The notes beneath the pieces were generated by a model. It did no database searches and had not been told where the DNA came from. It was given only the letters and a program-made list of their open reading frames with translations. The position numbers and the translations under genes were made by a program. Positions 1 through 39,799 of a DNA stretch of 64,000 bases are shown here, one piece after another. The stretch comes from Candidatus Spongiisociaceae bacterium (lineage in GTDB: Bacteria; Actinomycetota; Acidimicrobiia; Spongiisociales; Spongiisociaceae). The stretch is from positions 2,688,001 through 2,752,000 of the forward strand of contig CBDCOH010000002.1 of NCBI GenBank assembly GCA_965219685.1, given 5' to 3'. The first letter of the stretch is position 1, and each line of letters starts with the position of its first letter.

Positions 1-3000
1 GAATGTTGTCCCCCTTGACAATGGACTCGTATACCTTCACCCGGCCCAGCACGTCATCGGACTTGATGGTCAACAACTCCTGCAGCGCATAGGCGGCTCC
101 GTAGGCTTCCAAGGCCCATACCTCCATCTCTCCGAACCGCTGTCCCCCGAACTGAGCCTTCCCTCCCAGGGGCTGCTGGGTGATCATCGAATACGGACCC
201 GTCGAACGGGCGTGGAGCTTGTCGTCGACCAGGTGAACCAGCTTGAGTATGTAGAGGTAGCCGACGGTTATGGGTGTATCGAAGGCCAGTCCGGTGCGGC
301 CGTCGTACAGGATCGCCTTCCCGTCGTTGTCTATGAGACGGTCTCCGTCCCGGTTGGGCAGGCTGTTGGCGATGACCTTGGCGATCTCGTCCTCGCGGGC
401 TCCGTCGAATACCGGGGTCGCGACGCGGGACCAGGGAGGCATCCCGGCGGAGATCGGGCCGTCCGCGTTGAAACGCCTCCAACCCTGGGCGGCGGCCCAC
501 CCAAGGTGGGTCTCGAGTACCTGTCCCAGATTCATGCGGGAGGGAACACCCAGAGGCGAGAGGACGATGTCGACGGGTGTTCCGTCGGGGAGGAAGGGCA
601 TGTCCTCCTCGGGCAGGATCTTCGCGATCACACCCTTGTTCCCGTGACGGCCGGCCAGCTTGTCCCCCTCGGAGATCTTGCGCTGGCTGGCCACGTACAC
701 CCGCACCAGGTCGTTCACGCCGGGGGGCAGGTCGTCGTATCCCTCGGAGCGCCGGAACACCTTCACGTCGATCACCTTGCCGGTCTCTCCATGAGGAACC
801 TTGAGGGAGGAATCACGCACCTCGCGTGCCTTCTCCCCGAAGATGGCCCGCAGAAGCCGCTCCTCGGGGGTCATCTCCGTCTCCCCCTTGGGGGTCACCT
901 TCCCGACCAGGTAGTCGCCAGGGCCGACGTCGGCTCCAACGCGGATGATCCCCTCGTCGTCCAGGTCCCTGAGGACCTCTTCGGCGACGTTCGGGATGTC
1001 GCGGGTGATCTCCTCCGCCCCCAGCTTGGTGTCACGTGCATCGATCTCGTGCTCCTCGATATGGATCGATGTCAGCACGTCCTGTTTGACCAGGCGCTCG
1101 CTCAGCACGATGGCATCCTCGAAGTTATGACCCTTCCAGGGCATGAAGGCCGCCAGCAGGTTCTTGCCGAGCGCCAGTTCGCCGGCGTCGGTGGATGGCC
1201 CGTCGGCGATGACGGTGCCATTGGCGACCTGTTCTCCGATCACCACCAGCGGCTTCTGGTTGATCGACGTACCCTGATTGGAACGTTCGAACTTCCGCAA
1301 TGGGAAGCGGTGGGGCTCCCCGGTGGCGGACTCGACCACGACGATCTCGTCTCCCGTGACCGAGGTCACCACGCCGTCGATCCCGCAGATGATCAGATCA
1401 CCGGAGTCCTGGGCGGCTCTGGCCTCGACCCCGGTACCTACAAGGGGGGCTTCGGTCCGGAGTAGCGGGACGGCCTGGCGTTGCATGTTGGAGCCCATCA
1501 GCGCCCGGTTGGCGTCGTCGTGCTCCAGGAACGGTATGAGCGAGGTGGCGACCGAGACGATCTGCTTGGGGGATACGTCCATGTAGTCCACATCCTGGGG
1601 GCGGACCCGGTCGATGTCACCTCCGGCCCTGCGAACGAGCACCCGATCCCGGACGAAGGAGCCGTCGGGATTGAGAGCCGCGTTGGCTTGGGCTATAACG
1701 TACCGCTCCTCCTCGGATGCGGTCAGGTAGGTGATCGAATTGGTCACGCTGCCGTCCTCGACCTTCCGGTACGGAGTCTCGATGAAGCCAAAACGGTTGA
1801 CCCGGGCGTAGCTTGCGAGCGAGCCGATCAAGCCGATGTTCGGTCCCTCGGGAGTTTCGATCGGGCACATACGACCGTAGTGGGAAGGGTGGACGTCCCT
1901 CACCTCGAAGCCCGCCCGCTCCCGCGAGACCCCTCCCGGCCCGAGGGCTGACAACCGGCGCCGGTGGGTGAGGCCGGCCAGGGGGTTGGGCTGGTCCATG
2001 AACTGGCTGAGCTGACTGGACCCGAAGAACTCCTTGATCGAACCGACCACCGGCCGGATGTTGATGAGACTCTGCGGTGTGATGGAGTCGGGGTCCTGGG
2101 TGGTCATCCGCTCCCGGACCTGCCTCTCCATGCGGTTGAGCCCTACCCTGATCTGGTTCTGGACCAACTCGCCGACGGTGCGGACCCGCCGGTTCCCGAA
2201 ATGGTCCGTGTCGTCGGTCCGCACCGGTACGTCGTGACCGAGGGCGGTGGTCATGAGTTCCTTGCCCTCGTAAAGGTGGACCATGTACCGGATCGTGTCG
2301 ATCAGGTCGTCGTCGGCGAGCAATCCGTTGTCGGAGGCATGACCGTCGGGATTCTGGAACTTCTGGTTCACCTTGTAGCGCCCGACGTGGGTGAGGTCAT
2401 AGCGCTTCGGGTTCCTGAAAACGGACTGGATGAGACCGCGGGCCGACTCCACCGTGGTCGGCTCGCCAGGACGTTGCTTCCGGTACAGATCGAGCAGGGC
2501 CTCCTCCGGATCCTTGACCGGATCCCGCTCGAGGGTGTTGCGGATAACCTCGGCCCCGTCGAAAATCTCGATTATCTGCTCGTCCGTGTCCGCGACGCCG
2601 AGCGCCCGGATGAAGGCGGTCACGTACTGGCGGCGCTTGCGGTCCACCCTGACCCCGGCGGTATCCCGCTTGTCGATGTCGAACTGCATCCAAGCACCTT
2701 GCCCCGGGATGATCTTGGCGCCGAAGATGTCCTTGTCGGAGGTCTTGTCGATGGACTGATCGAAGTAGACACCGGGCGAGCGCACCAACTGGCTCACCAC
2801 CACCCGCTCCGTCCCGTTGATGATGAAGGTCCCGTTGCGGGTCATCATCGGAAAGTCGCCCAGGAACACTCTCTGCTCCTTGATCTCCCCGGTACCGCGG
2901 TTCACGAACCGGGCGATCACATGGAGAGGCTTGGAGTAACTGGTATCCCGCTCCTTGGCCTCCTCAACCGTCATCAGGGGCTCGCCGAAGTAGTGATCGC

Positions 3001-3184
3001 TCAAGTCCAAGGCAAGCGATCCGGAGAAGTCCTCGATAGGCGACAGCCGCTCGAAGATACGGCTCAGACCCTCCTCCAGAAACCACGAGAAGGACTCCTT
3101 CTGGACCGCGATCAGATCAGGCAACTCCAGCACTTCGGGGATCTTGGAGAACGACAGGCGCTCGTCGGCGTGAACTATGACCAA
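1..3184 (-). CDS. rpoB: DNA-directed RNA polymerase subunit beta (3' end lies beyond the window)
   Basis: Minus-strand frame from TTG at 3184 (AGGAGG upstream) reads [24 protein letters not shown] and later [35 protein letters not shown] and [25 protein letters not shown]. Not in the ORF track because it runs off the edge. Confidence 0.98.
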
Positions 3185-3481
3185 AGCTTCCTCCTAGAGA
3201 ACTACCCGACCGGACCCGACCCGGTCTCTACGATGCACCCGGTCCCGAGTCCTTTCGCACTCCGACCGCCCTTGGCACAGACTGTTTCGCTCCGTCTTCG
3301 TCGGGGCTGACCCACCCCTGCTTCGGCGGCAACCGCCCTGGCAAGTGGAACGGCTTCACACACGGCAAAAGGCAGGATAGCGCGCGGCTAACCTGCCCTA
3401 CCGGGCTGAAGTGCGATTCAACTGGTATCGACGGACTCCCGTTGCATTTTCCTCCGGGCAAAACCGTCCACTTCTCGTCTG

Positions 3482-3510
3482 ATGCTAGAGGCGATGGCGA
3501 AGCCAGTCAA
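3482..3510 (-). promoter_or_regulatory. Candidate sigma-A promoter for rpoB
   Basis: Minus strand TTGACT (3510-3505), 17-bp spacer, TAGCAT (3487-3482); implies a ~290-nt 5' leader. Confidence 0.6.
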
Positions 3511-3574
3511 GCACTGATCAGGAGCCAGTGGTCGGCATCGCCAAGCGTACGAATGATACAAATCGTCACGATCC

Positions 3575-3615
3575 ACTAGCAACTAGCAACTAGCAACTAG
3601 CAACTAGCAACTAGC
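3575..3615. repeat. Heptamer tandem repeat (ACTAGCA)x5 plus partial, overlapping the rplL stop
   Basis: actagca repeated; on the minus strand it reads TAGTTGC starting at the rplL TAG. Confidence 0.95.
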
Positions 3616-3994
3616 GTATCTCTACGCTGCCTCCGACGGCCTCGATCTTGCCCTTGGCGGCCTCGGCCTCCTCCTTGGAGACCGCCTCGAGCACGGTGTT
3701 GGGGATGCCGTCCACGACCGCCTTGGCCTCCTTGAGGCCGAGACGGGTGAGAGCGCGGACCTCCTTGATCACCTGGATCTTCTTGTCTCCCGAGGAGGTG
3801 AGCACGACGTCGAACTCCACCTGTTCCTCTTCGGGCTCGGCGGACGCGTCCTCGCCGGGCGCCATGGCAACCGCCATCGAAGCCGCCGCGGTCACATCGA
3901 AGTGACTCTCGAAGGCGTCCAAGAACTCTTTGAGCTCGAGGACCGTCATCTCCTCGAAAACGCTCAACAAGTCTGCGGTACTCATCGTGGCCAT
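3611..3994 (-). CDS. rplL: 50S ribosomal protein L7/L12
   Basis: EFDVVL...[21 protein letters not shown] motif; position next to rplJ. Confidence 0.98.
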
Positions 3995-4027
3995 GGTTCT
4001 CCTCCTGCGTGGGTGGTTTCCAGTGGT

Positions 4028-4582
4028 TTAGGGGGAATCGGACCCGGATACGGATCCGCCCTCCCCTGCTTCCTTCTTCTCGAGTAGTTGAGAGAACACG
4101 GAGGCGGCTTCGCGGCTGAGCGAACCCAGAAGGAACGCCGCCTTGGAAAGCGGTCCCTTCACTGCCCCGGCGATCTTCCCGAGTAGTGCCTCGCGGCCCT
4201 CGATCCTGGCGATGACCTCGATCTGGTGGGAGGCGATCACCTGGTCCTTCAGCAGCCCGGCCTTGACCACCAGGCCCTCGTTGTCCTTCCCGAAGTCCAC
4301 CAGAGCCTTGGCGGCGGGAACCGGATCATCGTCTACAAAAGCAACGGCGGTAGGGCCGGTCAACCATTCGTCGAGACCCTCATGACCGAGTTCGTGCAGT
4401 GCCCTGCGCGTGAGGGTCATCTTCAACACCTTGTAACGGGCGCCGGCCTCCCCGAGGGCGCGACGGAGTTCTTGCTGGCGAGCGACCGTCAGGCCGCGGT
4501 ACTCGGTGAGGAACGACGCCGAGGAACCGGCGAAGTAGTCCTTGATCTCTGCAACCGCCTTAACCTTCTCCGGTCGTGGCAT
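4028..4582 (-). CDS. rplJ: 50S ribosomal protein L10
   Basis: MPRPEKVKAVAEI...TEYRGLTV...GPTAVAF; synteny. Confidence 0.97.
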   Translation of the reverse strand: MPRPEKVKAVAEIKDYFAGSSASFLTEYRGLTVARQQELRRALGEAGARYKVLKMTLTRRALHELGHEGLDEWLTGPTAVAFVDDDPVPAAKALVDFGKDNEGLVVKAGLLKDQVIASHQIEVIARIEGREALLGKIAGAVKGPLSKAAFLLGSLSREAASVFSQLLEKKEAGEGGSVSGSDSP

Positions 4583-4681
4583 GAATCCTCCGCAGTCTTG
4601 GTGGCAGCGCCTGTGGTGGTATCAAGGCGAGCACCCTCCGATGAGCGAGACAGACGAGGGTACCCGAGAGACATCTCGAAT

Positions 4682-4770
4682 CAACCTCGGCAGGCGGATC
4701 CGTGTGGATCCCTTAAACCTTCAGAGCGGGAGTCGTCCCGTACCGCGGGTTACCGGCTGTCTGCGGCCCA
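4682..4770 (-). ncRNA. L10 leader (r-protein autoregulatory RNA)
   Basis: Minus strand CCGCAGACAGCCGGT...TTTAAG...CCTGCCGAGGTT upstream of rplJ resembles the L10-leader consensus. Confidence 0.75.
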
Positions 4771-4832
4771 TGGTTCCGGAACCTCTCCGGAGCCGTGCCG
4801 CAGCATAGACGGACGATGCGCGAAGGCCAAGT

Positions 4833-4913
4833 TGGTGGGTGGTGAATGGTGAGTGGTGAGTGGTGAATGGTGAGTGGTGAAGGCTCTACACACCACCAAT
4901 CACCAACTACCGA
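4833..4913. repeat. Bipartite heptamer array: (TGGTGRR)x7 left arm and CCACCAA-TCACCAA-CTACCGA right arm
   Basis: Left arm 4833-4881; right arm 4893-4913 includes the rplA stop; the arms are complementary. Confidence 0.9.
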
Positions 4914-5617
4914 CGCACTAGGCGATCAAGCCGGGAAGCGTCGACTTTCACTCCCGGACCCATGGTCGACGAGAGGGCGAGGTTCCTCAGATAGGTTCCC
5001 TTGGCAGCGGGCGGTTTTACCCTGACAATCTCGCCCACCAGAGCGGAGAGATTCTCGTGGAGCATGGCATCGTCGAACGAGACTTTCCCGATCGGGGCTG
5101 CGATGTTGCCGTAGCGGTCGTTCCGGTACTCGATCTTCCCGCCCTTGAACTCCCGCACGGTCCGGGCCACATCGCGAGTAATGGTGCCGGCCTTCGGGTT
5201 GGGCATGAGACCGCGGGGACCCAGCAGCCGCCCCAGGCGGCCCACCCTCGGCATCATGTCCGGGGTGGCGATAGCCACGTCGAAGGCGATCTCGCCCCCA
5301 GATGCGAGCATGTCGGCCAGATCCTGCCCGCCCACGACTTCGGCCCCGGCCTCCTCGGCCTCGAATTGCTTGTCCCCCCCTGCGAACACCGCAACGCGGA
5401 CCGAGCGGCCCGTTCCGTGCGGGAGGACGACCGTTCCCCTGACCAACTGGTCTGCCCTGCGAGGGTCGATTCCCAGCTTCATCACTGCCTCTACCGTCTC
5501 GTCGAAGCGGGCCGACGCCATGGTCCGGACCATCCGTATGGCTTCCGAGGGCGGGTAGGACAGGTACTTGTCGAACGTCGCGGCCATCTGGTTGTACCGC
5601 TTGCCTCTGCGGGCCAT
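4907..5617 (-). CDS. rplA: 50S ribosomal protein L1
   Basis: MARRGKRY...FDETVE...LPHGTG...[13 protein letters not shown]; ATG at 5617 with AAGGAGG SD. Confidence 0.98.
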
Positions 5618-5635
5618 GGTTCCTCCTTGTGGTGT

Positions 5636-5682
5636 TAGTGGTCTGCCTGCAAAACAACCTGTCGTGCCCTGCCAGCCAGGGA
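5636..5682 (-). promoter_or_regulatory. Possible L1-binding regulatory site before rplA
   Basis: TGGCAGG...GGCAGACCA stem with internal loop directly upstream of the rplA SD, in a long rplK-rplA spacer. Confidence 0.35.
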
Positions 5683-5844
5683 CGCCCCCGGCGGCGCATG
5701 CCACGACGCGATTTCACAGACAAAACCACTGGCGCCCCTGTCGGCCGAATGTCTTGGCATGCAACCGACGGACCACCGGCGAGCCGCCATGCAGCGGCTC
5801 TCCCAGCTATCTGTAACTTGTAGTGTCGGTCGAGCCCGACTGAC

Positions 5845-6273
5845 TCAGTCTGCGATGACGATCCCCATCGACCGGGCGGTACCGGCCACGATCTTCATCG
5901 CTCCCTCGACATCCGTCGTATTGAGATCGGGGAGCTTGGTCTCGGCGATCTGGCGAAGCTGATCCCGGGAAAGCGTGGCGACCTTCTCCCGGTTGGGCTC
6001 CGGAGAGCCCTTCTCGATCCTGGCCGCCTGCCGCAGCAGAACCGCGGCGGGCGGTGTCTTCGTCACGAACGTGAAGGACCGGTCGGCGTATATCGTAACC
6101 TCAGCCGGAACGATGGTCCCCAACTGGGTCTTGGTCGCCTCGTTGTAGGACCTGACGAACTCCATGATGTTTATCCCGTACTGGCCTAGCGCCGGACCGA
6201 CCGGCGGCGCGGGGCTGGCCTCCCCTGCCGGAATCTGGAGTTTCAGGATGGCTGTAACCCGTTTTCTACCCAT
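5845..6273 (-). CDS. rplK: 50S ribosomal protein L11
   Basis: [21 protein letters not shown]...GTARSMGI. Confidence 0.98.
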
Positions 6274-6349
6274 GATGGCCGATGTCCTTCGATCTTCCTC
6301 TTCAGTGTTCGGTGTGGAGCATCCCGGTCAAAAGGCCCGAGCCGCCCGC

Positions 6350-7198
6350 TCATTGCTTCTGGATCTCCTCGAATCCCAACTCCATCGGAGTGTCCCGGCC
6401 GAAGATCTCGACGAGCACGGTGACCTTCTGCCGATCGACGTTGATATCCTCAACCACTCCGTTGAAGTCGGCGAACGGACCCGATGAAACCCGCACCGTC
6501 TCCCCGATCTCCCATGCCGGCCGGAAACGAGGGGGCTTCTTGGCCGCCTCCTTCTTGAGACCGAGGAAGCGCTCGACCTCTCGCTTCGACAGGGAGGTCG
6601 GCTTGTTTCCTGTCCCCATCCCGACGAACGAGGTGACGCCCGGCGTGTTGCGAACTGCATGCCAGGAGTCGTCGTCCAGGTACATCCGGATGAGTAGGTA
6701 ACCGGGGAACATCCGCTTCTCAACCTCGACCTTGCGTCCCCCTTTGATCTCCACCACCTTCTCGGTCGGTATCACGACCTCGAAGATCCGGTCCTCCATG
6801 TGCATGGACGATGTACGAGTGGCCAGTCTCGCCTTGACCTTCTTCTCGTAGCCCGAATAAGCGTGGATCACGTACCAGGAACCCGGCTTGTCATACGGGC
6901 TGATCGGCTCCTCCTCGACCAGCTCCGCGACCTCGGTCGTGGCGGGTGGCTCGACGACTGGCTTGGGCTTGGCCGGCCGGGGCTTGGAGACCGTGCGGGG
7001 CTTGACAGCAGGTGCGGCGGTGGGATCCGGTTCAGGCGCTTGCGGCACCTCAGGCGGCACTTCCGGCAAGGAGCCATCGCTACCGAACCCTGCCGACAGC
7101 AGGGCCGCCCCCAGGGAGCCTACCGCTTCCTCCCCAGCCTCCCCTTGGGGCTCAGCGTCGAGGTCCTCGTCGACCGGAGGATGGGTACGGTCCGCCAC
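6350..7198 (-). CDS. nusG: Transcription termination/antitermination factor NusG with ~105-aa low-complexity N-terminal extension
   Basis: WYVIHAYSGYEKKVK...FPGYLLIRM...VRNTPGVTSFVG and KOW GPFADFNGVV. Confidence 0.96.
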   Translation of the reverse strand: MADRTHPPVDEDLDAEPQGEAGEEAVGSLGAALLSAGFGSDGSLPEVPPEVPQAPEPDPTAAPAVKPRTVSKPRPAKPKPVVEPPATTEVAELVEEEPISPYDKPGSWYVIHAYSGYEKKVKARLATRTSSMHMEDRIFEVVIPTEKVVEIKGGRKVEVEKRMFPGYLLIRMYLDDDSWHAVRNTPGVTSFVGMGTGNKPTSLSKREVERFLGLKKEAAKKPPRFRPAWEIGETVRVSSGPFADFNGVVEDINVDRQKVTVLVEIFGRDTPMELGFEEIQKQ

Positions 7199-7200
7199 GC

Positions 7201-7521
7201 CTAACCCGTCAATTCTCGGATCAGGGCCAGCACCGTGCGGCTGAACGCCAAGTCGACAACGAACACGTAGCCGGTCAGCACCCCCGCCGTCACGACCGTG
7301 ACCGCGGTGAAAGCGACCATCTGCTGGCGGCTTGGCCAGCCGACGCGACTGAGTTCGACCCGTACTTCGCGAAGGAACTGCACGAGGCGCGCCAAGCGGC
7401 CCCGTGGCTGGCCACCTTGACCCCCGGACCCTCCAACGATCGGAGAACGACGGCTCCGGGTGTCCTTCTGTTTGCTGCGTCGCTCCTCCCGCTCGGCGAG
7501 CCGACGCATCTCGCGGTTCAT
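7201..7521 (-). CDS. secE: Preprotein translocase subunit SecE
   Basis: FLREVRVELSRVGWPSR plus one TM helix; lies between tRNA-Trp and nusG; start chosen at MNREMRR. Confidence 0.92.
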   Translation of the reverse strand: MNREMRRLAEREERRSKQKDTRSRRSPIVGGSGGQGGQPRGRLARLVQFLREVRVELSRVGWPSRQQMVAFTAVTVVTAGVLTGYVFVVDLAFSRTVLALIRELTG

Positions 7522-7573
7522 ATCGATTCCTGTCCTATGTGGTTCCACCGGCGGGTTTCGCCGCGAACGAGTG

Positions 7574-7651
7574 TGGCAGGGGCGGAGGGATTCGAACCCC
7601 CAACCTCCGGTTTTGGAGACCGGCGCTCTAACCAGTTCGAGCTACGCCCCT
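7574..7651 (-). tRNA. tRNA-Trp (CCA)
   Basis: AGGGGCGTAGCTCGAACTGGTTAGAGCGCCGGTCTCCAAAACCGGAGGTTGGGGGTTCGAATCCCTCCGCCCCTGCCA. Confidence 0.97.
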
Positions 7652-7666
7652 CAGCCGTGGGGGGTG

Positions 7667-7696
7667 AGTATACGAAGAGGTCGGCCCCAGTGTAAA
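7667..7696 (-). promoter_or_regulatory. Candidate sigma-A promoter for tRNA-Trp/secE/nusG
   Basis: TTTACA-18 bp-TATACT on the minus strand just upstream of the tRNA. Confidence 0.55.
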
Positions 7697-7705
7697 CCGA
7701 GTGCC

Positions 7706-7818
7706 GGTTGTCCGTTGTCGGTTGCCCGTCGGGTGACCGGGCAGCGCGGGGAGTGCCGTGGCACTCCGAGCATGTCAGGGGTCAGCGGAGGCATACCGCT
7801 GGCAACCGGCAACCGGCT
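7706..7818. repeat. Bipartite heptamer array: GGTTGTC-CGTTGTC-GGTTGCC left arm and (GGCAACC)x2 right arm
   Basis: Left 7706-7726, right 7801-7814 next to the anti-sigma stop (7819); arms complementary. Confidence 0.7.
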
Positions 7819-8220
7819 TCAGCTCGCCTGGGATCTGAGCCGGCGGCCCGCCACGACGACCAGTCCGATAGCGGCGACCGACGCGGCCGAGGCGATGGCG
7901 GCCACCAATGGACGGCGCCTGTCAGCCGGCATATCGGCGGGATCGTCGTCCGTGACCTGGATCGTGGGTTGGTCGAGAACCGACGTCATGTCGTAGGGAA
8001 GGGGCTCGAACTCCTGCCGTAGAGACGCTAGGCCCCTCATCACCTGGCGCTGGCGAACTGTCGCGGCCTGGCAGAGCAGGCACTCACTTCGGTGCCGCTC
8101 GAGCGGCTGGGGCAAGGTGATCGTTCCCGACTCCACTCCATACAGCACCAAGCGGGTCATCCTGCAAGCCGCTCCCCGAGGCAACCGGTCCGTGGCCGTC
8201 TTAGCAAGAGGTTGGCTCAC
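7819..8220 (-). CDS. Putative zinc-binding (ZAS) anti-sigma factor with C-terminal TM helix
   Basis: HRSECLLC (HxxxCxxC); hydrophobic C-terminus; overlaps the ECF sigma stop. Confidence 0.7.
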   Translation of the reverse strand: MSQPLAKTATDRLPRGAACRMTRLVLYGVESGTITLPQPLERHRSECLLCQAATVRQRQVMRGLASLRQEFEPLPYDMTSVLDQPTIQVTDDDPADMPADRRRPLVAAIASAASVAAIGLVVVAGRRLRSQAS

Positions 8221-8780
8221 ACCACCCCCCTCAACATATCCCGCAGGCGGAGATGAGCCCGGTGAAGTCGTACCTTGGAAGCTGCCACAGAGATGGACAT
8301 CGAGTCAGCGATCTCGCGGTGCGACCACCCGTAGACGTCCTTGAGTATGACGATGGCCCTCTGGTGGTGGGGTAAGCGGCTCAGCGCAGCCTTCAGGTTG
8401 GCTCTCAACTCAGCCCGCTCGCCGGCAACCTCGGGATTCCCGCTGGCATCCGCATGGGGCTGGCGGATCATCTGGTCTAGGTCGTAGGTGGCCTGGCGCG
8501 CCGCCCGGCCCTTGAGTGTCCAGGCAACGTTAGCCGTGATCCGATAGATCCAGGTGCTGAAGCTGGAATCCCCCCGGAACCGGCCGATGGCTCTCCATGC
8601 CCGCACCAGCGCCTCCTGGGTGACATCTGCGGCCAGGGTTCGATCCCCGACCAAGCGAACCGCCAATGTGTAAACCTCGTGTTGGTGAAGCCGAGCGAGT
8701 TCTCCGAATGCGGCCCGATCACCCTTTCTTGACCGTTCCACCAACTCGCCTATATCGGCTTCGACCCGTCGACCTGACAT
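8217..8780 (-). CDS. ECF RNA polymerase sigma factor (sigma-70 group 4)
   Basis: GDRAAFGEL...ADVTQEALVRAWRAIGRFRGDSSFSTWIYRIT; region 4 SHREIADSMSISVAASKVRLHRA. Confidence 0.95.
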   Translation of the reverse strand: MSGRRVEADIGELVERSRKGDRAAFGELARLHQHEVYTLAVRLVGDRTLAADVTQEALVRAWRAIGRFRGDSSFSTWIYRITANVAWTLKGRAARQATYDLDQMIRQPHADASGNPEVAGERAELRANLKAALSRLPHHQRAIVILKDVYGWSHREIADSMSISVAASKVRLHRAHLRLRDMLRGVV

Positions 8781-8800
8781 CTGGTTACAGGCTCCCGCTC

Positions 8801-9670
8801 CTAGCCGGTCCTGGCCGTGATGGTAGCAACAACATGTGTCCCGGCGTCTGAGACGACGGCCGTCTTGATAGCGGCTCGGCCGCCGGAACAGTCATCGACG
8901 GCTGCCGTCACCTCTGCCGCCGTATCCGGATAGAGGGGGCGCCGGAAACGAAAACGACCACTGACCAACGGATCCAAGCGATCGATCACCGCCGCGGCGG
9001 GCTGGGTGGCCCACGCAGCCATCAGCAGGCCGTGACAAATGACACCCCCTACTCCGGAGGCAACGCCCCGACCGTGATCCCAGTGGACCGGGTTGAAGTC
9101 CTCGCTGGCAGCCGCATAGCGCACGAGGTCGGAGCGCGAAGCCGACTTGGGAAGCCCGGGCAGGGCAGTCCCGGGAGTCAACGTCCCCCCTCCGGCCGGT
9201 CGAGCATTCGCCCGACGAGCCTCCGGCTCGGGTTCCTCCCGCTCCTCCGACCCGCCACCAGGCGGCACGCCGGCCGACATGAGGAAGAGCGACCTCGATG
9301 ACAGCACGCCCTGGTCCCGGTCATCCTTCACATCCACCACGAAGGTGACGAACGCTGTGTCACCGCGGCGGCGCAGGCGGTCCACCCTGCCCTCGATCGA
9401 AAGCGAAGAGCCTACCCGCCAGGGCGCCAACCAGGAGAAGGTCTGCTCGCCATGGATGAGCAGGCGCGCATGTGTCGACACGTCGGGGTCGGCGAAGAAC
9501 GCAGGCGCCGCCTTGAAGAGGACAGCCCCCGCGAACGAGGGTGGTGCATGGGTGTCCCACCGTCGCGGATCATCGCCAGTGGCTTCCACGTATGCGGCAA
9601 CTTGCGCAGCACTGACCCGGAATGCGAAGGGTCCATAGGAGCGACCTGAGAGGGCCCCGAGATCACTCAA
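8801..9670 (-). CDS. Double hot-dog MaoC-family dehydratase (HadA/HadB-like fusion)
   Basis: N-terminal LIHGEQTF; C-terminal RYAAASEDFNPVHWD...VICHGLL hydratase motif; same locus as mycobacterial hadABC. Confidence 0.85.
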   Translation of the reverse strand: MSDLGALSGRSYGPFAFRVSAAQVAAYVEATGDDPRRWDTHAPPSFAGAVLFKAAPAFFADPDVSTHARLLIHGEQTFSWLAPWRVGSSLSIEGRVDRLRRRGDTAFVTFVVDVKDDRDQGVLSSRSLFLMSAGVPPGGGSEEREEPEPEARRANARPAGGGTLTPGTALPGLPKSASRSDLVRYAAASEDFNPVHWDHGRGVASGVGGVICHGLLMAAWATQPAAAVIDRLDPLVSGRFRFRRPLYPDTAAEVTAAVDDCSGGRAAIKTAVVSDAGTHVVATITARTG

Positions 9671-9680
9671 CTCCTACGGC

Positions 9681-9863
9681 CTACCGTATCTCGCGATGGA
9701 GGGTGTGACGTCGTAGGAATGGATTGTACTTCTTGAGTTCCAGCCTGCTCCGCGTGTTATTACGGTTCTTGGTGGTTATGTAACGGGACGGCGGCTTACC
9801 TTCGCCCCGTGCCTCTGTGCACTCAAGTGTTATCTTGATTCGGCTGCCCTTTTTCTTGGCCAT
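9681..9863 (-). CDS. rpmG: 50S ribosomal protein L33, zinc-free (C-) type
   Basis: [10 protein letters not shown]...[10 protein letters not shown]...[21 protein letters not shown]. Confidence 0.95.
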
Positions 9864-9915
9864 GGCACCCTTCCCACTCCTTCAGTATCCAGTTCCGAGG
9901 ACTCCCAGCCTCCCG

Positions 9916-11103
9916 TTATTTTGTGATTTTGGTGACAGTGCCCGCACCCACAGTACGACCACCCTCACGAATCGCAAACCGCAACCCCTCATCCATAGCA
10001 ATAGCCGAACCCAACTCCACCGACATACGAGTGTTATCACCCGGCATCACCATCTCCACCCCATCAGGCAACGCAACCCGACCAGTCACATCCGTCGTAC
10101 GGAAATAAAACTGCGGCTGATACCCAGCAAAAAACGGATTATGCCGACCACCCTCATCCTTAGTCAACACATACACCTGAGCCTCGAACCCAGTATGCGG
10201 CGTGATCGACCCCGGAGCAGCCAACACCTGACCCCGCTCCACCTCCGTCTTGCGCACCCCCCTCAACAACACCCCCACATTGTCACCAGCCCGACCCTCA
10301 TCCAACAACTTACGGAACATCTCCACCCCCGTCGCCACCGTACGACGAGTCTCCCGAATCCCCACCACCTCAACCGGATCACCCACATGAACCACCCCAG
10401 CCTCAACCTTCCCAGTCACCACCGTCCCCCGACCAGTAATCGAAAACACATCCTCGATCGGCATCAAAAACGGCCGATCCACCGGACGGTCCGGAACCGG
10501 AACATACGAATCCACCGCATCCATCAACTCCAGCACACCCCCCGCAGCAGCCTCATCCCCCTCCAAAGCCGCCAACGCCGACACCGGCACCACCGGCACG
10601 TCATCCCCCGGAAACCCATAATCATCCAACAACTCCCGAACCTCCAACTCCACCAACTCCAACAACTCCTCATCATCCACCAAATCAACCTTATTCAACG
10701 CCACAACAATACAAGGCACCCCCACCTGACGCGCCAACAACACATGCTCCCGCGTCTGAGGCATCGGACCATCAGCCGCCGACACCACCAACACCGCACC
10801 ATCCACCTGAGCAGCACCCGTAATCATATTCTTGATATAATCCGCATGCCCCGGCATATCCACATGCGCATAATGACGACCCACAGTCTCATACTCCACA
10901 TGCGCAATAGCAATCGTAATACCCCGCTCACGCTCCTCCGGCGCCTTATCAATCTCATCAAACACCGTAAACGTATTCCCAGCCACCCGCTCAGACAACA
11001 CCCGAGTAATCGCAGCAGTCAACGTCGTCTTACCATGATCAATATGACCCATAGTCCCAACATTCACATGCGGCTTAACCCGCTCAAACCTCGCCTTAGC
11101 CAT
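9916..11103 (-). CDS. tuf: Elongation factor Tu
   Basis: [29 protein letters not shown]...DMPGHADY...NKVD; 395 aa from ATG at 11103. Confidence 0.99.
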
Positions 11104-11184
11104 GGTGTCCGTTTCCCCTCTTGGTGTCCTGTGTGTCCATACATTGCATCGGTCGGCAATCATCACCGACAGCCGACCGTTTCG

Positions 11185-11258
11185 TAGCGGCGGGCAGACT
11201 TGAACTGCCGACCTCTCGATTATGAGTCGAGCGCTCTTACCGACTGAGCTACGCCGCC
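11185..11258 (-). tRNA. tRNA-Met (CAT), probably elongator
   Basis: GGCGGCGTAGCTCAGTCGGTAAGAGCGCTCGACTCATAATCGAGAGGTCGGCAGTTCAAGTCTGCCCGCCGCTA. Confidence 0.93.
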
Positions 11259-11302
11259 CCGGGGGATGGCCGCCCGGCATGCCGCCCGGCGTCACCCGCT
11301 CG

Positions 11303-11376
11303 AGCCCCCTTCCGGATTCGAACCGGAGACCTCCTCCTTACCATGGAGGCGCTCTGGCCTGCTGAGCTAAGGGGGC
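11303..11376 (-). tRNA. tRNA-Thr (GGT)
   Basis: GCCCCCTTAGCTCAGCAGGCCAGAGCGCCTCCATGGTAAGGAGGAGGTCTCCGGTTCGAATCCGGAAGGGGGCT. Confidence 0.95.
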
Positions 11377-11407
11377 ACTTCCGTGGGCACAAACCGCCCA
11401 CCCTCGG

Positions 11408-11490
11408 TGCCGGGAGAAGGATTCGAACCTCCGTAGGCATCTACCGGCAGATTTACAGTCTGCTCCCTTTGGCCGCTCGGGCATCCCGGC
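11408..11490 (-). tRNA. tRNA-Tyr (GTA)
   Basis: GCCGGGATGCCCGAGCGGCCAAAGGGAGCAGACTGTAAATCTGC..., long variable arm, GGTTCGAATCC T-loop. Confidence 0.95.
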
Positions 11491-19089: not shown

Positions 19090-21060
19090 TCACACAACCC
19101 GTTCGTTCCCTCCGTCAACAGGGATCTGGGCGCCCGTCGTGGCGGCGAAGGTAGCGCTGCACAGTTCCGTCACAACGCCGGCTACCTGCTTCGAGGTCAC
19201 TTCAGTGGCCAGCAGGTTGCGCGTGCGGTATTCCTCCGCCGTCATCCCGTACACGGCGGCGCGCCCGGCGATGAGCTCATCGCTCCAGAGGCCTGTGTCG
19301 AACACGCCGTCAGGGTGGACTACGTTCACCCGGATACCGTCTGCCGCCCACTCGAGCGCCGCCACCCTCGCCAGTTGCGTCACAGCCGCCTTCGAGGCGG
19401 AGTAGGCCGCCGCACCACGGCCTGGCGCCGGCACGTTCTTCGAGCCGACCACGACCACCCGGCCGCCGACCGGGGAGCGGGCAAGCAACGGGTGCACCGA
19501 TGCCAGCAGGCTCGCCACCGCGTCCGTGTTGACGGCCTGAACCGAACGCCACCGGGCGGTGTCGAGGTCACTGAGAGGCCCCGGCCGGCCGAACACCCCT
19601 GCCGCAGCCACGGCGATGTCGACGCCTCCGAACCGTTCCACCGTACGGTCGAGTGCCAGTCGCTGAGCTTCGCGATCGGTCACGTCGACTTGAATCCCGT
19701 ACCAGGCCGGACCCGTAAACCTACCGCCCACGCCCGGATCCAGATCGAACCCGGCCACGGCGCACCCGCCGGAGAGTAGTTCAGCGGCGCAGGCGGCTCC
19801 GATCCCGGACGCGGCGCCCGTGACAAGCGCCACCATCCCCGCGAACCTCGGCGGCTCACCGGCCCGACGGAGTTTCGCCTGCTCCAGATCCCAGTACTCC
19901 ACTTCGAACAGATCGCCGGAACCGAGGGCAACGTAACCGCCGAGGTGGTCCTCGGCGCGTTCGAGGACCGGCATGGTGTGGTGGTAGATGTCGGCCGCGA
20001 TCCGGGAGGCCTTGGCGCTCTCACCGATTGTCAGCAGGCCCAGGCCCGGGTCTAACACCACTCTGGGCGCGGGATCGAGCATGGTCAGTTCAGTCCGTCC
20101 CCGGTGGCGGTTTTCCTCGAAGTACCTCCCGTAGGCATCGACATACGCGTCGACATCGGCTCCGACCATGGGCAGGCGCTTGGTCCTGATCACGTGGTCG
20201 GGGGTGAGCGGGCCCCGGGACGCCAGGCTATCCAGGTCGGCACGGCGCACGAACCGGCTAGTGGTCCGGTCGGTATGGCGGGCCATGATCATCGGTTTGC
20301 CGGCCGCTTCCGAGATCCGGAGACGCAGGCTGGCCAGTTCCACCGAGCAGGCCGGAGGGAGTGTGTCCGGGTCCGGATCAGCCTGACGGGCATGCGCCTC
20401 CAGCCAGCGCTCGGCAGCCGTAATCAGCCGGATGTGGCGGGTGTAGGCAGCCTTGGTAGTCGACCCGAAGGTGAACAGCCCGTGGTTGAGGAGCACGAGA
20501 CCTTCCATCCCCTCCCGGTACTGCTCCCGCCAGATGGCCACGATCGCCCGGGCCAGGTCGAAGCCCGGCATCACATAGGGGACTATCCCGACCCTCTGGC
20601 CGAACACCTCCCTTACCCGCGCCTCGCCGTCGGCCAGGTTGGTGAGGGTGACGATGGCGTCGGCATGGCTGTGCTGGACCGCACGGTAAGGGAGGAAAGC
20701 ATGCAGGAGGGTCTCCACGGACGGCTGGGGCGCGGCGGGATCCAGCCGGGCGGCCGACAGCTCCCGCATCATGTCGGGGTCGGACAGCCTTTCGAGAGCG
20801 AGCAGATCATGCAGGCGGTCGAGGGGCAGCGGCGTGAACCCGGGCGCTTCGATCGCTCCCAGGTCCCACCCGGAACCCTTCACGTAGAGGGCGTCGATGG
20901 TCCGCCCGGTGATGTCCTCGAACGGCGCCTTGACCGAGGTGTTGCCGCCTCCGTGCAGGACAAGGTAGGGGTCGGAGCCCAGCAACCTGGACCCGTAGAC
21001 ACAGCCACCGAGGGGCCCATCGAATGCAGCCGCCTCAGCGTCTCGCCATCTGTTTTTCAT
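19090..21060 (-). CDS. Bifunctional class II aldolase / short-chain dehydrogenase (RhaD-SDR-like family)
   Basis: HGGGNTSVK...PSVETLLHA...HSHAD...NHGL aldolase domain; VTGAASGIG...YSASK...NVVHPD SDR domain. Confidence 0.92.
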   Translation of the reverse strand: MKNRWRDAEAAAFDGPLGGCVYGSRLLGSDPYLVLHGGGNTSVKAPFEDITGRTIDALYVKGSGWDLGAIEAPGFTPLPLDRLHDLLALERLSDPDMMRELSAARLDPAAPQPSVETLLHAFLPYRAVQHSHADAIVTLTNLADGEARVREVFGQRVGIVPYVMPGFDLARAIVAIWREQYREGMEGLVLLNHGLFTFGSTTKAAYTRHIRLITAAERWLEAHARQADPDPDTLPPACSVELASLRLRISEAAGKPMIMARHTDRTTSRFVRRADLDSLASRGPLTPDHVIRTKRLPMVGADVDAYVDAYGRYFEENRHRGRTELTMLDPAPRVVLDPGLGLLTIGESAKASRIAADIYHHTMPVLERAEDHLGGYVALGSGDLFEVEYWDLEQAKLRRAGEPPRFAGMVALVTGAASGIGAACAAELLSGGCAVAGFDLDPGVGGRFTGPAWYGIQVDVTDREAQRLALDRTVERFGGVDIAVAAAGVFGRPGPLSDLDTARWRSVQAVNTDAVASLLASVHPLLARSPVGGRVVVVGSKNVPAPGRGAAAYSASKAAVTQLARVAALEWAADGIRVNVVHPDGVFDTGLWSDELIAGRAAVYGMTAEEYRTRNLLATEVTSKQVAGVVTELCSATFAATTGAQIPVDGGNERVV

Positions 21061-21247
21061 CGGTTATCCGTTGCCCGTTGTCGCTTGCCCGTTGTACCGG
21101 GTGTCATGCGCGTGCTATCGGCTCGCTGTCCTAGCTGTCAACGCATCGTAGAGACTCGATGACCGACCACCACTCACCACTCACCACTCACCACTCACCA
21201 CTCACCACTCACCACTCACCACTCACCACTCACCACTCACCACTCAC
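21061..21247. repeat. Bipartite heptamer array: degenerate (CCGTTGY)x5 left arm and perfect (CACTCAC)x11 right arm
   Basis: Left 21061-21095 abuts the aldolase ATG; right 21171-21247 abuts the SDR stop. Confidence 0.93.
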
Positions 21248-22029
21248 TAATACGGTGTATCGCCGCCGTCGACGTTGATGGCCTGACCCCTGATGATCAG
21301 CGCATCGTCCGAAAGGAGAAAGGCGATCACCCTGCCCACCTCCAGCGCGCTCACCCTCCTCGCCAGTTGCGCAGGGCCCATACCCGACAGTAGCTGGTCG
21401 GCCGGTATGTCGAGGCGGGGGGACAACCACTCAGCCACGCCGCGTAGCATCGGGGTGTCGACGCCTCCTGGGCACACCGCGTTCACATTTATACGGTCTT
21501 CGGCCCACTCCATCGAAAGCGACCGGGTGAGACCGATCACCGCGGCCTTGGAGGCGTTATAGGCGGCCATGTTGCGGTAACCGACCTTGCCGCAGTTGGA
21601 CGAGACGTTGACGATGGAGCCTCCGCCGGTGGTCCTCAAGTGCATGCCGACGGCCTTCGCGACCAGGAAGGACCCGGTCACATTGACGTCCAACTGGCGG
21701 TTCCAATCGGAGGCGGTCGCGTCCCAGGCCTCGTCCAGCATCACCGCTCCAGCGTTGTTGACCGCACCGTCGAGGCGCCCGAACCGGTCCAACGTCCCCC
21801 GGACCGCAGCAGCGACATCTTCGACCGAGGAGACATCCCCCTGCAACGCACAGGTCGCGGAGCCATCGGGGTCTACCATCGCGGCGACCCTCTCCGCTCG
21901 GCCGAGATCCAGGTCCACGAGCGCCACCCGGCCACCCTCCTCCAGGATCGCTTGGGTGATGCCGGCCCCGATCCCTCCGGCGGCGCCGGTCACAAGGAAG
22001 ACCCGTCGCGCCAACCTGGGGGCGCTCAT
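21247..22029 (-). CDS. SDR family oxidoreductase (sugar/polyol dehydrogenase-like)
   Basis: VTGAAGGIG...NNAG...SSNCGK...YNASK...NAVCPGGVDT; start MSAPRL at 22029. Confidence 0.92.
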   Translation of the reverse strand: MSAPRLARRVFLVTGAAGGIGAGITQAILEEGGRVALVDLDLGRAERVAAMVDPDGSATCALQGDVSSVEDVAAAVRGTLDRFGRLDGAVNNAGAVMLDEAWDATASDWNRQLDVNVTGSFLVAKAVGMHLRTTGGGSIVNVSSNCGKVGYRNMAAYNASKAAVIGLTRSLSMEWAEDRINVNAVCPGGVDTPMLRGVAEWLSPRLDIPADQLLSGMGPAQLARRVSALEVGRVIAFLLSDDALIIRGQAINVDGGDTPY

Positions 22030-22039
22030 CGCAGCGCTC

Positions 22040-22813: not shown

Positions 22814-22852
22814 GGCATGGTCCTCTCGGCTGTTCGCGCCCGGAACACTGGA

Positions 22853-23299
22853 CTACTCCCTAACGTAACGGGGGATCCGGCCGGCGGCAGCCGGGTAGCG
22901 GTCCATGAGTTCGGCCGCTTCGCCGAGCTCGAATCCTTCCTCGCGGTAGGGCGGGGCCATGGTGGCGCCCACGAGGGACCAGGCACCCACTGTTCGAGCG
23001 CCCATCCACACTCCGGCCCGCACCGCCAAACACGGTCGCTGCCCTGCGGCCAGATCGTCGCCGAGGACAGGCGCCCGCACTCCTCCCTCCGGTTCCAGCA
23101 GCAGCATCGCCACCGGATCCCCCGCGTAGTGATGCCACAGTTCGGCTGCATCCAGCCGGTGGATGGCCGAGAAATCGCCGGGCTGGAGCAGGTAGTAGAT
23201 ACCGCTCCCGTGTTCGTCCTTCCAAGTGCGAGCCCACATCCCCCCTTCGACGGGGAGCGGTGCCAGACCGAGAAGGGCGACCACTTCGGCGCCGGTCAC
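22853..23299 (-). CDS. Cupin, DUF985/cupin_5-like
   Basis: L.PLPVEGG...IYYLL...HRLDAAELWHHYAGDP...WSLVGATMAPPY...FELG. Confidence 0.88.
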   Translation of the reverse strand: MTGAEVVALLGLAPLPVEGGMWARTWKDEHGSGIYYLLQPGDFSAIHRLDAAELWHHYAGDPVAMLLLEPEGGVRAPVLGDDLAAGQRPCLAVRAGVWMGARTVGAWSLVGATMAPPYREEGFELGEAAELMDRYPAAAGRIPRYVRE

Positions 23300-24600: not shown

Positions 24601-24767
24601 GCGGCCTCCTGGATGGTGGGCGTCTTGCCCCACCAGTATCCGTTGATGCACTTCGCTTAGGGCTCGGCGACTCGATGATAAGGGACGATCGGGCAAACGA
24701 CACAGCTCAAAGGCACCGACCTCCGTGCGGCCCCGCCACGTAGCCACCGGCCACTATCCTACGGCCC

Positions 24768-25832: not shown

Positions 25833-25902
25833 ACCATAAACTCGGTCTCGCGCGGCCAGGGGCCGCGCGCCGACCCAAAGAGAAGAAAGCGAGGACCGCA
25901 TC

Positions 25903-38348: not shown

Positions 38349-38449
38349 TTCCTCCCTGGATGGCTCCGTCAGCCGGAGTCGTCGTGGACGAGACGAACGG
38401 TGTCCCGGGCGATCAGCGACTCCTCGTCGGTGGGTATCACCCAGATGTC

Positions 38450-39799
38450 GGCCCTGCGCGGAAATGTGGGATGGGTGGGTTGAAATCCTTGGATTGGGGG
38501 TGAGGCCCCGCTGGAATCGGTGAAGACCAAATCGCCGAATCCCAGGAGGGGCCTCGATGTCTGATGTTATGTCTGTTCGTCTGCACTTGTCGGGTGTTCG
38601 CGTTAAGGGGGTGCCGGTCGATTCCGTTGATCGCCTCGAGGTTGAGGTGGAATCGACCAGGGAGTGGTCCCGGTGTCCTCATTGTGGGTTCCGCTGCTCC
38701 AAGGTGTGGGACCGGCGAGCGAAGCGGGTTCGTGACTTGGAGGTGAGCGGCCGGCGCACGACTCTGGTGTGGCGTCGCCGCCGGTTCTGGTGTGGTAACT
38801 GTGAGGAGCGGCACCTGGAGGACCACGACCAGTTCCGGGCGGGGTTGACTCGCCGGTTCGCGCAGCGTCTTGTTCAGGACGCCAGGCGGATGTCGATTAG
38901 GGCGGCTTCCCGTCATCACGGGGTGGGTTGGCATCGGATCATGGGCCTGGTGAGAGCTGAGGCGGCTCGGGTAGCGAAGCGTCGCCGCTCCCGACCCTGT
39001 CGGGTGTTGTTGGTGGACGAAACGTCGATCCGGCGCCGGCATCGTTATGTGACCGTGGTTGCTTGTGGCGACACCGGCAAAGTGTTGGCGATGATCCCAG
39101 GCCGGACGAAAGCGTCTCTGACCAGGTTCTTCAGAGACCAGGGGGCATGGTGGTGTCGGCAGGTGGAGATCGTCGTCTCCGACGGATCACGCTCATACCA
39201 GGCAGCCATCGCCCAGTACCTGCCCGACGCCCGCCACGTCCTCGACCGGTTCCACGTCGCGCGGTGGTTTACCGAAGGCTTGACCCTGGTACGCCGTGAA
39301 CTGCAACGCCGCCCCCCAGATCAGCGGCCCCCCACATACGAGCCGGACCTTTTCCGAGCCCGGTTCACCCTCCTACGGCGGGCGGATCATCTCACAGACG
39401 GGCACCACAAGCACCTCGACCGCCTATTCGACGCTCACCCCCGGCTCCGCACCGCCTGGGACGCTCTCCAAGAGCTCTACCAGCTGTACCAATCCGAAGA
39501 CCTCGACGGCGCCAACCAGGCGCTGGGGCGGTTCGCCGACCTCTACGCCACCGGTCAGATCCCCGAATACCACGACATCGTGGACACCATCATCGCCTGG
39601 GGAGAAGAGATACTGGCCTACCACCGCAGCAGACGAGCAACCAACGGACCCATCGAAGGAATCAACAACCTGCTCCAAGTCCTACGCCGCGTCGCTCACG
39701 GGTTCACCAACACCAACAACTTCGCAGCCCGAGGAATCCTCGTAACATGACCCACCACACCGACCACAGCGCCCAAAACCCACGAAATCGCGAAGCCTC
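38450..39799 (+). mobile_element. ISL3-family insertion sequence, 1350 bp, 8-bp target duplication CAGATGTC
   Basis: CAGATGTC at 38442-38449 and 39800-39807; imperfect terminal IRs GGCCCTGCGCGGAAATGTGGG / GAGGCTTCGCGATTTCGTGGG. Exact ends are uncertain by 1-2 bp. Confidence 0.9.
38557..39750 (+). CDS. ISL3-family transposase
   Basis: CPHCG...CGNC zinc finger; VDETS; SDGS; LDRFHV; TNGPIEGINN. Confidence 0.95.
   Translation: MSDVMSVRLHLSGVRVKGVPVDSVDRLEVEVESTREWSRCPHCGFRCSKVWDRRAKRVRDLEVSGRRTTLVWRRRRFWCGNCEERHLEDHDQFRAGLTRRFAQRLVQDARRMSIRAASRHHGVGWHRIMGLVRAEAARVAKRRRSRPCRVLLVDETSIRRRHRYVTVVACGDTGKVLAMIPGRTKASLTRFFRDQGAWWCRQVEIVVSDGSRSYQAAIAQYLPDARHVLDRFHVARWFTEGLTLVRRELQRRPPDQRPPTYEPDLFRARFTLLRRADHLTDGHHKHLDRLFDAHPRLRTAWDALQELYQLYQSEDLDGANQALGRFADLYATGQIPEYHDIVDTIIAWGEEILAYHRSRRATNGPIEGINNLLQVLRRVAHGFTNTNNFAARGILVT

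Follow-up and report, generated by a model that had tools for sequence, protein, structure and literature searches.

In Salmonella, the two genes for elongation factor Tu (EF-Tu), tufA and tufB, reportedly evolve in concert by gene conversion. Such concerted evolution of tufA and tufB was described by Lathe and Bork (2001) and Kondrashov et al. (2007), both cited in PMC6053082, which places Actinobacteria among the phyla with concerted tuf and whose main text does not contain the word "skew". Here we analyze the tuf gene of a 64,000-nucleotide stretch of DNA (hereafter the window) from Candidatus Spongiisociaceae bacterium, a member of the actinobacterial order Spongiisociales. In this genome (G000, with contigs C1 and C2; relatives are likewise designated by G numbers) tuf has an identical second copy, and nearly all of its codons end in G or T, a strand asymmetry that stops where the identity of the two copies stops and turns into its opposite at the 3' end. 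We know of no report of a strand skew in concerted tufA/tufB systems.

Almost all tuf codons end in G or T

The product of the gene shows the three usual EF-Tu domains in 395 aa (Pfam GTP_EFTU, 6.4e-63; D2, 2.7e-16; D3, 3.3e-38). Third positions of the 395 sense codons are G in 226 cases, T in 151, C in 15 and A in 3, so that 377/395 end in G or T; we refer to this fraction as K3. A first-pass annotation of the window, made from the sequence alone, had noticed the near absence of C- and A-ending codons and had proposed a third-position comparison over all genes. In that comparison tuf, with a K3 of 0.954, stands 8.7 standard deviations (SD) above the mean of 0.468 (SD 0.056; 3,333 crude gene calls), and the next real gene reaches 0.75. 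The calls were made by a crude gene caller of our own, which scores open reading frames (ORFs) on amino-acid composition and picks them greedily, covering 83.5% of the genome; it replaced an initial ranking of raw ORFs that was dominated by out-of-frame and antisense ORFs.

Genes on the same strand near tuf have K3 values of 0.47 (rpoB, rplL and rplA), 0.48 (rplJ), 0.55 (nusG) and 0.56 (rplK). They had been described as dominated by C-ending codons, which is only roughly right, since both C- and G-ending codons are used (fraction of C-ending codons, C3, 0.36-0.47). The GC content at third positions (GC3) is 0.61 in tuf as compared to 0.73-0.94 in its neighbours, and tuf has a C3 of 0.04 and a T-ending fraction (T3) of 0.38. 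On the plus strand, the GC skew over tuf goes down to -0.55, and GC content is 0.54-0.61 versus 0.62-0.74 in the flanks. The earlier claim that roughly the first 85-90 codons all end in G or T is borne out, the first 89 doing so, and the switch to C and A that was seen in the last eight or so is present in eight of the last nine codons (stop included), where AAA and ACA appear in place of the AAG and ACC that the genome usually has.

The annotation had also raised the objection that single-copy, highly expressed genes might carry the same bias, which they do not: ribosomal-protein genes (K3 0.38-0.56), rpoB and fusA are all free of it. Its statement that the tuf bias runs against translational selection stands as well, the ribosomal-protein genes using C. 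The skew also accounts for a 456-aa open frame on the strand opposite tuf (9817-11187, plus strand), which contains no stop codon because its first codon positions complement the third positions of tuf.

The skew is confined to the stretch shared by the two copies

The second copy that the first-pass annotation anticipated is found at G000:C2:3517139-3518326 and is identical at 1188/1188 bases, which also disposes of the doubt that there might be none. Identity between the copies ends 5 nt 5' of the ATG and 1 nt past the stop codon, with unrelated flanks on both sides. The second copy lies 6 nt after fusA (K3 0.44) and before rpsJ (0.48), the S10-operon genes of G000 having K3 values of 0.38-0.54, and the contrast of tuf with fusA and the S10 operon is repeated in five relatives. 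The two contexts, fusA-tuf-rpsJ and tRNA-tuf-rpmG, are those of a concerted tufA/tufB pair. The copies are identical in G004 and in G031 and one codon apart in G033, yet they differ between species.

With the replication origin near 3.46 Mb, the two tuf copies both run in the direction of replication. Since the skew ends within 5 nt of the coding sequence (CDS) and is absent in fusA, transcription alone is not its driver, and the tuf skew is not a transcription- or replication-driven mutational skew extending over a whole unit or replichore.

A base-class skew with two opposite poles

Leucine is encoded by TTG in 26/27 codons of tuf, as compared to 10.8% in the genome. Two-fold pyrimidine codons mostly end in T (GAT 25/28, CAT 11/11, TAT 8/8, TTT 10/13, ATT 12/16), and in the four-fold boxes of Ala, Gly, Thr and Arg, G and T are about equal. 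The skew is one of base class at the nucleotide level, keto (G/T) over amino (A/C), and not a codon preference. G/T transversions make up from 11/22 up to 58/79 of the synonymous differences between skewed species, and G/T differences between skewed tuf genes are spread evenly along the gene (0.30-0.36, in same-length pairs of 75-97% protein identity only); sites are held in the keto class and are free to vary inside it. We discarded an apparent gradient of synonymous conservation along tuf, which consists mostly of C/T changes in the less skewed 3' part. The protein differs as well: in a comparison of 51 skewed with 17 unskewed loci that ignores kinship, the residue shift per skewed EF-Tu is K -4.2, E -3.3, I -2.9, V +4.8, R +2.5 and G +2.3, with fewer Thr as well as fewer K, E and I.

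Over 40 full-length skewed orthologues (partial sequences dropped), K3 in twelve bins from 5' to 3' is.98,.96,.93,.98,.92,.97,.94,.90,.92,.87,.87 and.61. The third positions of their last 8 codons are G.19, T.06, C.59 and A.16, as compared to G.40, T.02, C.56 and A.03 in 15 unskewed tuf genes, and AAA appears instead of AAG at the 3' end of the skewed orthologues. K3 of the last 20 codons is 0-0.10 in eight genomes (G104, G004, G060, G115, G140, G158, G110 and G014) versus 0.25-0.50 in 17 unskewed tuf sequences. The 3' flip therefore exceeds a mere return to normal usage. In genomes with an "intermediate" tuf, such as G004 (K3 by thirds.97,.76 and.39), the switch point has moved rather than the skew faded. 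Non-coding flanks shared between copies behave in the same manner, the 17 nt upstream in G031 being 82% G/T and the 16 nt downstream in G004 being 6% G/T. The common rule is that the strand which has its 5' end at a block border is G/T-rich near that border.

Skewed tuf and identical copies occur together across the order

We scored tuf K3 in 78 genomes of the order, drawn from 31 relatives and from an even sample of 151 genomes, each at least 90% complete, of which 80 yielded a full-length tuf match. The relatives are not independent of one another, and copy number in draft genomes was deduced from contig ends; three genomes (G022, G038 and G152) are unpublished, and the statements on family f5 and one of the skewed values below rest on them. 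K3 is at least 0.68 in 59 genomes and at most 0.56 in 19, with none between. Two or three (near-)identical tuf copies are present in 37 of the 59 skewed genomes, and in another 17 tuf lies at a contig end or in pieces at contig ends, as is expected of a collapsed repeat. In four more (G043, G073, G110 and G140) the assembled copy is the fusA-rpsJ one, and the rpmG contig stops 34-137 nt upstream of rpmG, twice inside the tuf 3' end; the last, G115, falls into none of these groups.

A single interior tuf is found in 13 of the 19 unskewed genomes, and all 13 genomes with such a tuf are unskewed, among them the near-closed G116, G123 and G159 (3, 9 and 1 contigs). Of the other six, two carry a diverged pair of copies (G052, at 86.7% DNA identity, and G085), G022, G038 and G078 have tuf at contig ends, and G025 has two copies that differ in 7/396 codons. 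Further records give K3 values of 0.98 in G031 and 0.91 in G033, each with two copies, 0.78 in G035, where the second copy is frameshifted, and 0.45 in G032, which has one copy. The comparison of single-tuf with two-tuf relatives that had been suggested in advance thus upholds the link to multiple copies across the 78 genomes.

The unskewed EF-Tu proteins of G052 and G085 are 91-95% identical to that of the skewed G037, which belongs to the genus of G052. Since the state of the skew flips within a genus, gene transfer is not its cause. The public titles of the nearest tuf loci read Acidimicrobiia, and among 80 bacterial tuf loci only five combine a K3 of at least 0.69 with a TTG share of at least 39% among Leu codons, four of them labelled Acidimicrobiia-type and the fifth (L050) Alphaproteobacteria. 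The foreign origin that the annotation had considered as a way to overturn its reading is accordingly not seen, tuf grouping with its own order.

Some tuf genes of Acidobacteria and other phyla have a K3 of 0.6-0.72 with low T3. Loci L106, L107, L087, L088, L114 and L115, labelled Acidobacteriota, Vicinamibacterales and Deltaproteobacteria, have K3 values of 0.63-0.72, T3 again being low, and in some the last 20 codons are C/A-rich too; such G-rich genes may represent a weak relative of the same effect in lineages with concerted tuf.

Decaying tuf copies occur in three relatives: an extra copy in G089 (G089:C13:172621-173805) with three in-frame TGA codons and a diverged middle, the frameshifted second copy of G035 (L218, 1714-2896), and a copy in G158 (G158:C1:570304-571257) truncated near codon 310. 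In each, the rest of the gene is still identical or skewed. A full-length tuf match is lacking in 71/151 genomes of the sample, all at least 90% complete, and in many others tuf lies at a contig end. Identical copies seem to break short-read assemblies, so that tuf is missing or broken in many of them and under-represented in the assemblies of the order.

Repeated genes elsewhere in the genome follow the same rule

Self-BLAST of G000 revealed 8 genes with an in-frame tandem duplication of ~0.9-1.2 kb, 92-100% identical (Table 1). All are lipoproteins by their N-termini, and the 4 that were run through Pfam are solute-binding proteins. In all 8, K3 climbs at the start of the repeat unit, 41-202 codons past the start codon, and drops toward the end of the unit: it is.45-.63 in the unique 5' part,.50-.87 in the first third of the unit,.11-.72 in its last third and.05-.40 in its last 20 codons. 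Whole-gene K3 reaches at least 0.61 in 4/8 of these genes versus 31/3,300 genes overall (Fisher p = 3e-7). One of them has double orthologues in G006, G010 and G004, with halves 96-100% identical and K3 values of.86,.73 and.76; single-unit members of the same family have.52 in G002 and.38 in a G010 paralogue. The duplicated lipoprotein genes repeat the whole mature domain, and the double form of one is kept in three relatives, another genus included.

The gradient extends to repeated genes in general. For main-contig genes with 200 codons or more, identical copies being collapsed, K3 of the first third minus K3 of the last third averages +0.186 in 45 distinct repeated genes (84% positive) as compared to +0.025 in 2,507 others (Mann-Whitney p = 3e-11), and the 50 steepest gradients include 20 repeats, mostly transposases, against a background of 2.1%. 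Whole-gene K3 shows no excess in 65 repeated genes versus 3,213 others (0.451 vs 0.468); such averages look normal because a two-pole skew cancels. An ISL3-family insertion sequence in the window has the same two poles. Its two copies (2726447-2727799 and 3037304-3038656 in the self-BLAST) are identical, K3 falls from 0.73 in the first third to 0.23 in the last, and over all positions GC skew declines from +0.29 to -0.27 and AT skew rises from -0.22 to +0.40, with the switch near 39100-39200.

Two further kinds of repeat were noted. Positions 1-10,410 of G000:C1 (30,458 bases) recur at 20,186-30,458 with 99.8-100% identity, as if a circular element of ~20.2 kb had been assembled one and a half times over; a 123-aa ORF on this contig (6037-6408) has a K3 of 0.89 and no Pfam hit. 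Two giant ORFs with internal repeats (G000:C2:172364-196114 and 2993780-3016438; 7,916 and 7,552 codons) have K3 values of 0.66 and 0.63, and their repeat stretches are strongly G/T-ending.

A proposed bias of fixation and its possible source

In the close and unsaturated pair G005/G006, the divergence of tuf is.079 at four-fold sites (d4),.037 at two-fold pyrimidine sites (dY) and.010 at two-fold purine sites (dR), as compared to.201,.109 and.080 in nine neighbouring genes; in distant pairs, saturation under a skewed composition makes such a comparison of rates less reliable. Strong extra C-to-T input would raise two-fold turnover, and since turnover in tuf is lower, a fixation bias is indicated rather than extra mutation. 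Nor does tuf show the raised substitution rate of repeat hypermutation, whether of the kind known as repeat-induced point mutation or by a deaminase, its divergence being below that of its neighbours. Low divergence, confinement to the keto class and the amino-acid shift together point to a force on fixation, like biased gene conversion, and we infer that the skew was written by a bias of conversion rather than of mutation. The first-pass annotation had proposed a strand-asymmetric mutation or repair signature acting on multi-copy DNA. The strand asymmetry and the tie to multi-copy DNA hold, the latter also in the binding-protein genes and transposases of G000, and the asymmetry can be refined to two poles per homology block; for the mutational part we favour biased repair or conversion instead.

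The best reading, which we put forward tentatively and would stop just short of calling probable, is a strand-polar, keto-biased gene conversion between identical tuf copies, with NucS as a candidate filter. Two copies would be kept identical by gene conversion (concerted evolution), and in this lineage both base class and strand would bias the correction of heteroduplex. G/T alleles would spread to the other copy, and A/C alleles would be erased, on whichever strand has its 5' end at the block border. If conversion of tuf begins almost always at the 5' border, the sense strand would come to hold G or T wherever the protein allows, G and T being interchangeable and changes such as CTG to TTG and some amino-acid replacements being included; the last few codons, by the 3' border, would take the opposite C/A bias. 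Mechanistically, the 3'-ended strand of the recipient may pair near the border with the complementary strand of the donor, and if only keto-keto mismatches were corrected, toward the continuous donor strand, the opposite border would give the opposite skew.

NucS/EndoMS, presumed to be the sole mismatch-repair enzyme of these bacteria, is the most concrete candidate for the base-class filter. To our knowledge, its specificity is the only known repair specificity that follows the keto/amino division. NucS is reported to prefer G-T, G-G and T-T mismatches, with weak or no activity on A-C, and to hinder homeologous recombination (PMC8228993); mismatches of the kinds on which NucS acts, when introduced with oligonucleotides, undergo nearly 100% repair in vivo (PMC11551744), and deletion of nucS in Haloferax causes a severe gene-conversion defect (PMC11276520). 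G000 carries a nucS gene (a 219-aa ORF at G000:C2:3185006-3185665 with NucS_N and NucS_C matches). The comparison of nucS presence with K3 was set as a test before the search. The gene was found in 138/151 genomes of the order. It was not found in two unskewed genomes with two tuf copies, G022, where two upstream contexts end in tuf, and G025, and family f5 (G022 and G038), without detectable nucS, is unskewed (.44 and.42). Neither was it found in G042 and G157, which have a single-copy, unskewed tuf. Its absence from G025 (85% complete) may reflect incompleteness, because a congener has nucS. MutL was not found in five nucS-lacking genomes, a search that did not include G000.

Several observations weigh against this reading or against NucS as a required part of it. 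No nucS was found in 3/3 genomes of the genus g57 (90-92% complete; Pfam model and G000 protein as queries), and the one assembled tuf of this genus (G114) nonetheless has a K3 of 0.92; likewise G089 (96% complete) has no detectable nucS and a tuf K3 of 0.85. A recent loss of nucS is not an easy way out, since d4 between g57 species (.41-.49) is close to that of G052/G037 (.57), where the skew is gone. G025 has two near-identical copies and only a short G/T domain (0.85 over the first 40 codons, 0.56 over the whole gene). A single-unit binding-protein gene of G005 is skewed (K3.85), and of the duplicated binding-protein genes, three that lie on the lagging strand show no overall G/T richness. 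The identity of insertion sequences comes from transposition, and their skew could have another cause. Finally, the rate argument assumes equal T-to-C pressure in tuf and its neighbours. We therefore have fair confidence in the link to recombination and much less in the NucS step. The broader claim that every intragenomic homology block in NucS-only bacteria is stamped with a two-pole keto/amino skew through the mismatch preference of NucS is doubtful, although worth stating.

Alternative explanations

The strongest competitor is a mutational cause linked to recombination: DNA synthesis in the repair of gaps or breaks would run inward from each block border and escape mismatch repair, and with G-T mispairs as its most frequent errors it would add G and T to the new strand. 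This would give a skew of the same sign with the same two-pole, border-anchored pattern, and its independence of NucS suits g57 and G089. In the ISL3 copy, the symmetric switch halfway along the element resembles a meeting point of two synthesis tracts, and a preprint on Mycobacterium tuberculosis paralogues proposes reduced NucS repair during recombination (PMC13061034). Such synthesis is hard to reconcile with a tuf synonymous divergence 2.5 to 8 times below that of the neighbours in the unsaturated pair. Conversion would in addition have to be very frequent to outrun normal mutation and codon selection ~40-fold (a rough estimate from orders of magnitude), and the unskewed f5, and largely G025, would be left unexplained. 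We consider this explanation unlikely, though it deserves to be taken seriously.

Selection could alternatively act on the tuf mRNA, a C-poor, G/U-rich and weakly folded message with few Rho or RNase E sites giving higher output. Rho and the mycobacterial RNase E prefer C. The confinement of the skew to the ORF agrees with this, as does predicted folding, which is weaker in tuf genes with a K3 of at least 0.89 (-0.24 to -0.29 kcal/mol/nt); unskewed orthologues fall at -0.34 to -0.39 and neighbouring genes at -0.31 to -0.45. Nevertheless, the 13 single-copy lineages and both lineages with diverged copies use C-ending codons despite an equal need for EF-Tu, and the ribosomal-protein genes have no skew. 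The skew of the binding-protein genes does not set in until the repeat unit, 41-202 codons past the start codon; the 3' end of tuf is C/A beyond normal usage; and transposases and shared non-coding flanks obey the same rule. Selection on the message is thus close to refuted and, in our judgement, improbable.

Horizontal transfer from a lineage with such codon usage, which the low GC3 of tuf relative to its neighbours would suggest as a classic sign of foreign DNA, and translational selection on an unusual tRNA pool were both rejected as highly implausible, the first because the nearest proteins are of the same order, unskewed congeners are 92-95% identical and only 5 of 80 bacterial loci are similar (4 of them Acidimicrobiia-type), the second because one tRNA serves both NNT and NNC, four-fold boxes show no preference between G and T and the ribosomal-protein genes, which use C, do not share the bias.

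Gene neighbourhood and coordinates

Downstream of tuf, the gene order is rpmG, a MaoC-like gene, an ECF sigma factor, tRNA-Trp, secE, nusG, rplKAJL and rpoB. The ECF sigma factor and MaoC-like dehydratase genes (8217-9670, minus strand) lie between rpmG and tRNA-Trp/secE, inside an otherwise conserved tuf-rpmG-secE-nusG cluster.

Table 1. Coordinates of tuf, its domains and flanking genes, and of other repeated genes (window positions unless a contig is named).
Feature	Location	Strand	Evidence and remarks
tuf (EF-Tu), tRNA-tuf-rpmG copy	9916..11103	-	translation 395 aa; Pfam; K3 0.954
G/T-rich (keto) domain, tuf codons 1-387	9943..11103	-	11/387 codons C-ending, 0 A-ending
C/A-rich (amino) domain, tuf codons 388-396, 3' border of block	9916..9942	-	8/9 codons C/A-ending
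Homology block with second tuf copy (G000:C2:3517134-3518331)	9911..11108		self-BLAST 1198 nt, 99.9%
tRNA-Tyr, tRNA-Thr, tRNA-Met, 5' of tuf	11184..11490	-	ARAGORN; no skew; not common to second copy
rpmG (L33), 3' of tuf, outside homology block	9690..9860	-	Pfam Ribosomal_L33 4.1e-19
ISL3-family insertion sequence, one of two 100% identical copies	38447..39799	+	Pfam DDE_Tnp_ISL3 1.3e-60
Duplicated lipoprotein genes, part 1	G000:C2: 428611-430986, 938467-940710, 1822985-1825234, 2360761-2363259
Duplicated lipoprotein genes, part 2	G000:C2: 2508210-2510279, 3242918-3245374, 3866430-3868598, 4304561-4306810

Significance and comparison with known systems

Should the proposed conversion bias be correct, DNA repair and not translation would set the codon usage of the most highly expressed gene across an order, with a bias powerful enough to override codon selection there and to change even some amino acids, and the EF-Tu protein sequence itself would be nudged by repair. 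The poles and the switch point would record where conversion starts and how long its tracts are, readable in uncultured organisms, and the odd substrate range of NucS would be tied to genome composition. Such genes mislead methods built on codon usage, including expression prediction, foreign-DNA detection and dN/dS estimates.

Full-text searches, which did not reach subscription journals and supplements, turned up no published description of such a skew, and literature searches found no published link between NucS and the base composition of paralogues. The nearest idea found is that of the 2026 M. tuberculosis preprint, in which recombination-associated repair asymmetries could reshape paralogue composition (PMC13061034).

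With the concerted tufA/tufB systems, G000 and its relatives share one copy after fusA and one after a tRNA cluster, identity within a genome together with divergence between species, and a homology that ends at the CDS; the skew is what sets them apart. Skews that follow replication or transcription have the same sign in this genome, leading-strand genes having a K3 of 0.484 as compared to 0.447 on the lagging strand, but that of tuf is ~10 times larger, confined to homology blocks, absent from the co-transcribed fusA and two-poled. Translational bias would be common to translation genes and would pick one codon per box, neither of which is seen for tuf. Polarity gradients of meiotic conversion in yeast and the 5'-to-3' decay of somatic hypermutation also have a signal that peaks at one gene end and then decays; those systems are eukaryotic, are not base-class specific in this way and have no described reversal at the far border. 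NucS/EndoMS repair has a substrate preference that follows the keto/amino division, and it acts against homeologous recombination (PMC8228993), but the presence of nucS does not fully track the skew.

GC-biased gene conversion is likewise a fixation bias tied to recombination, which resembles selection, can oppose codon selection and reaches non-synonymous sites. It enriches G and C on either strand, whereas in tuf G+T is favoured on one strand: C3 is 0.04, GC3 drops from ~0.9 to 0.61, and near the opposite block border the bias is inverted. The tuf genes of this order would thus add, if the proposed conversion bias is right, a strand-polar, keto-class form beside GC-biased gene conversion.

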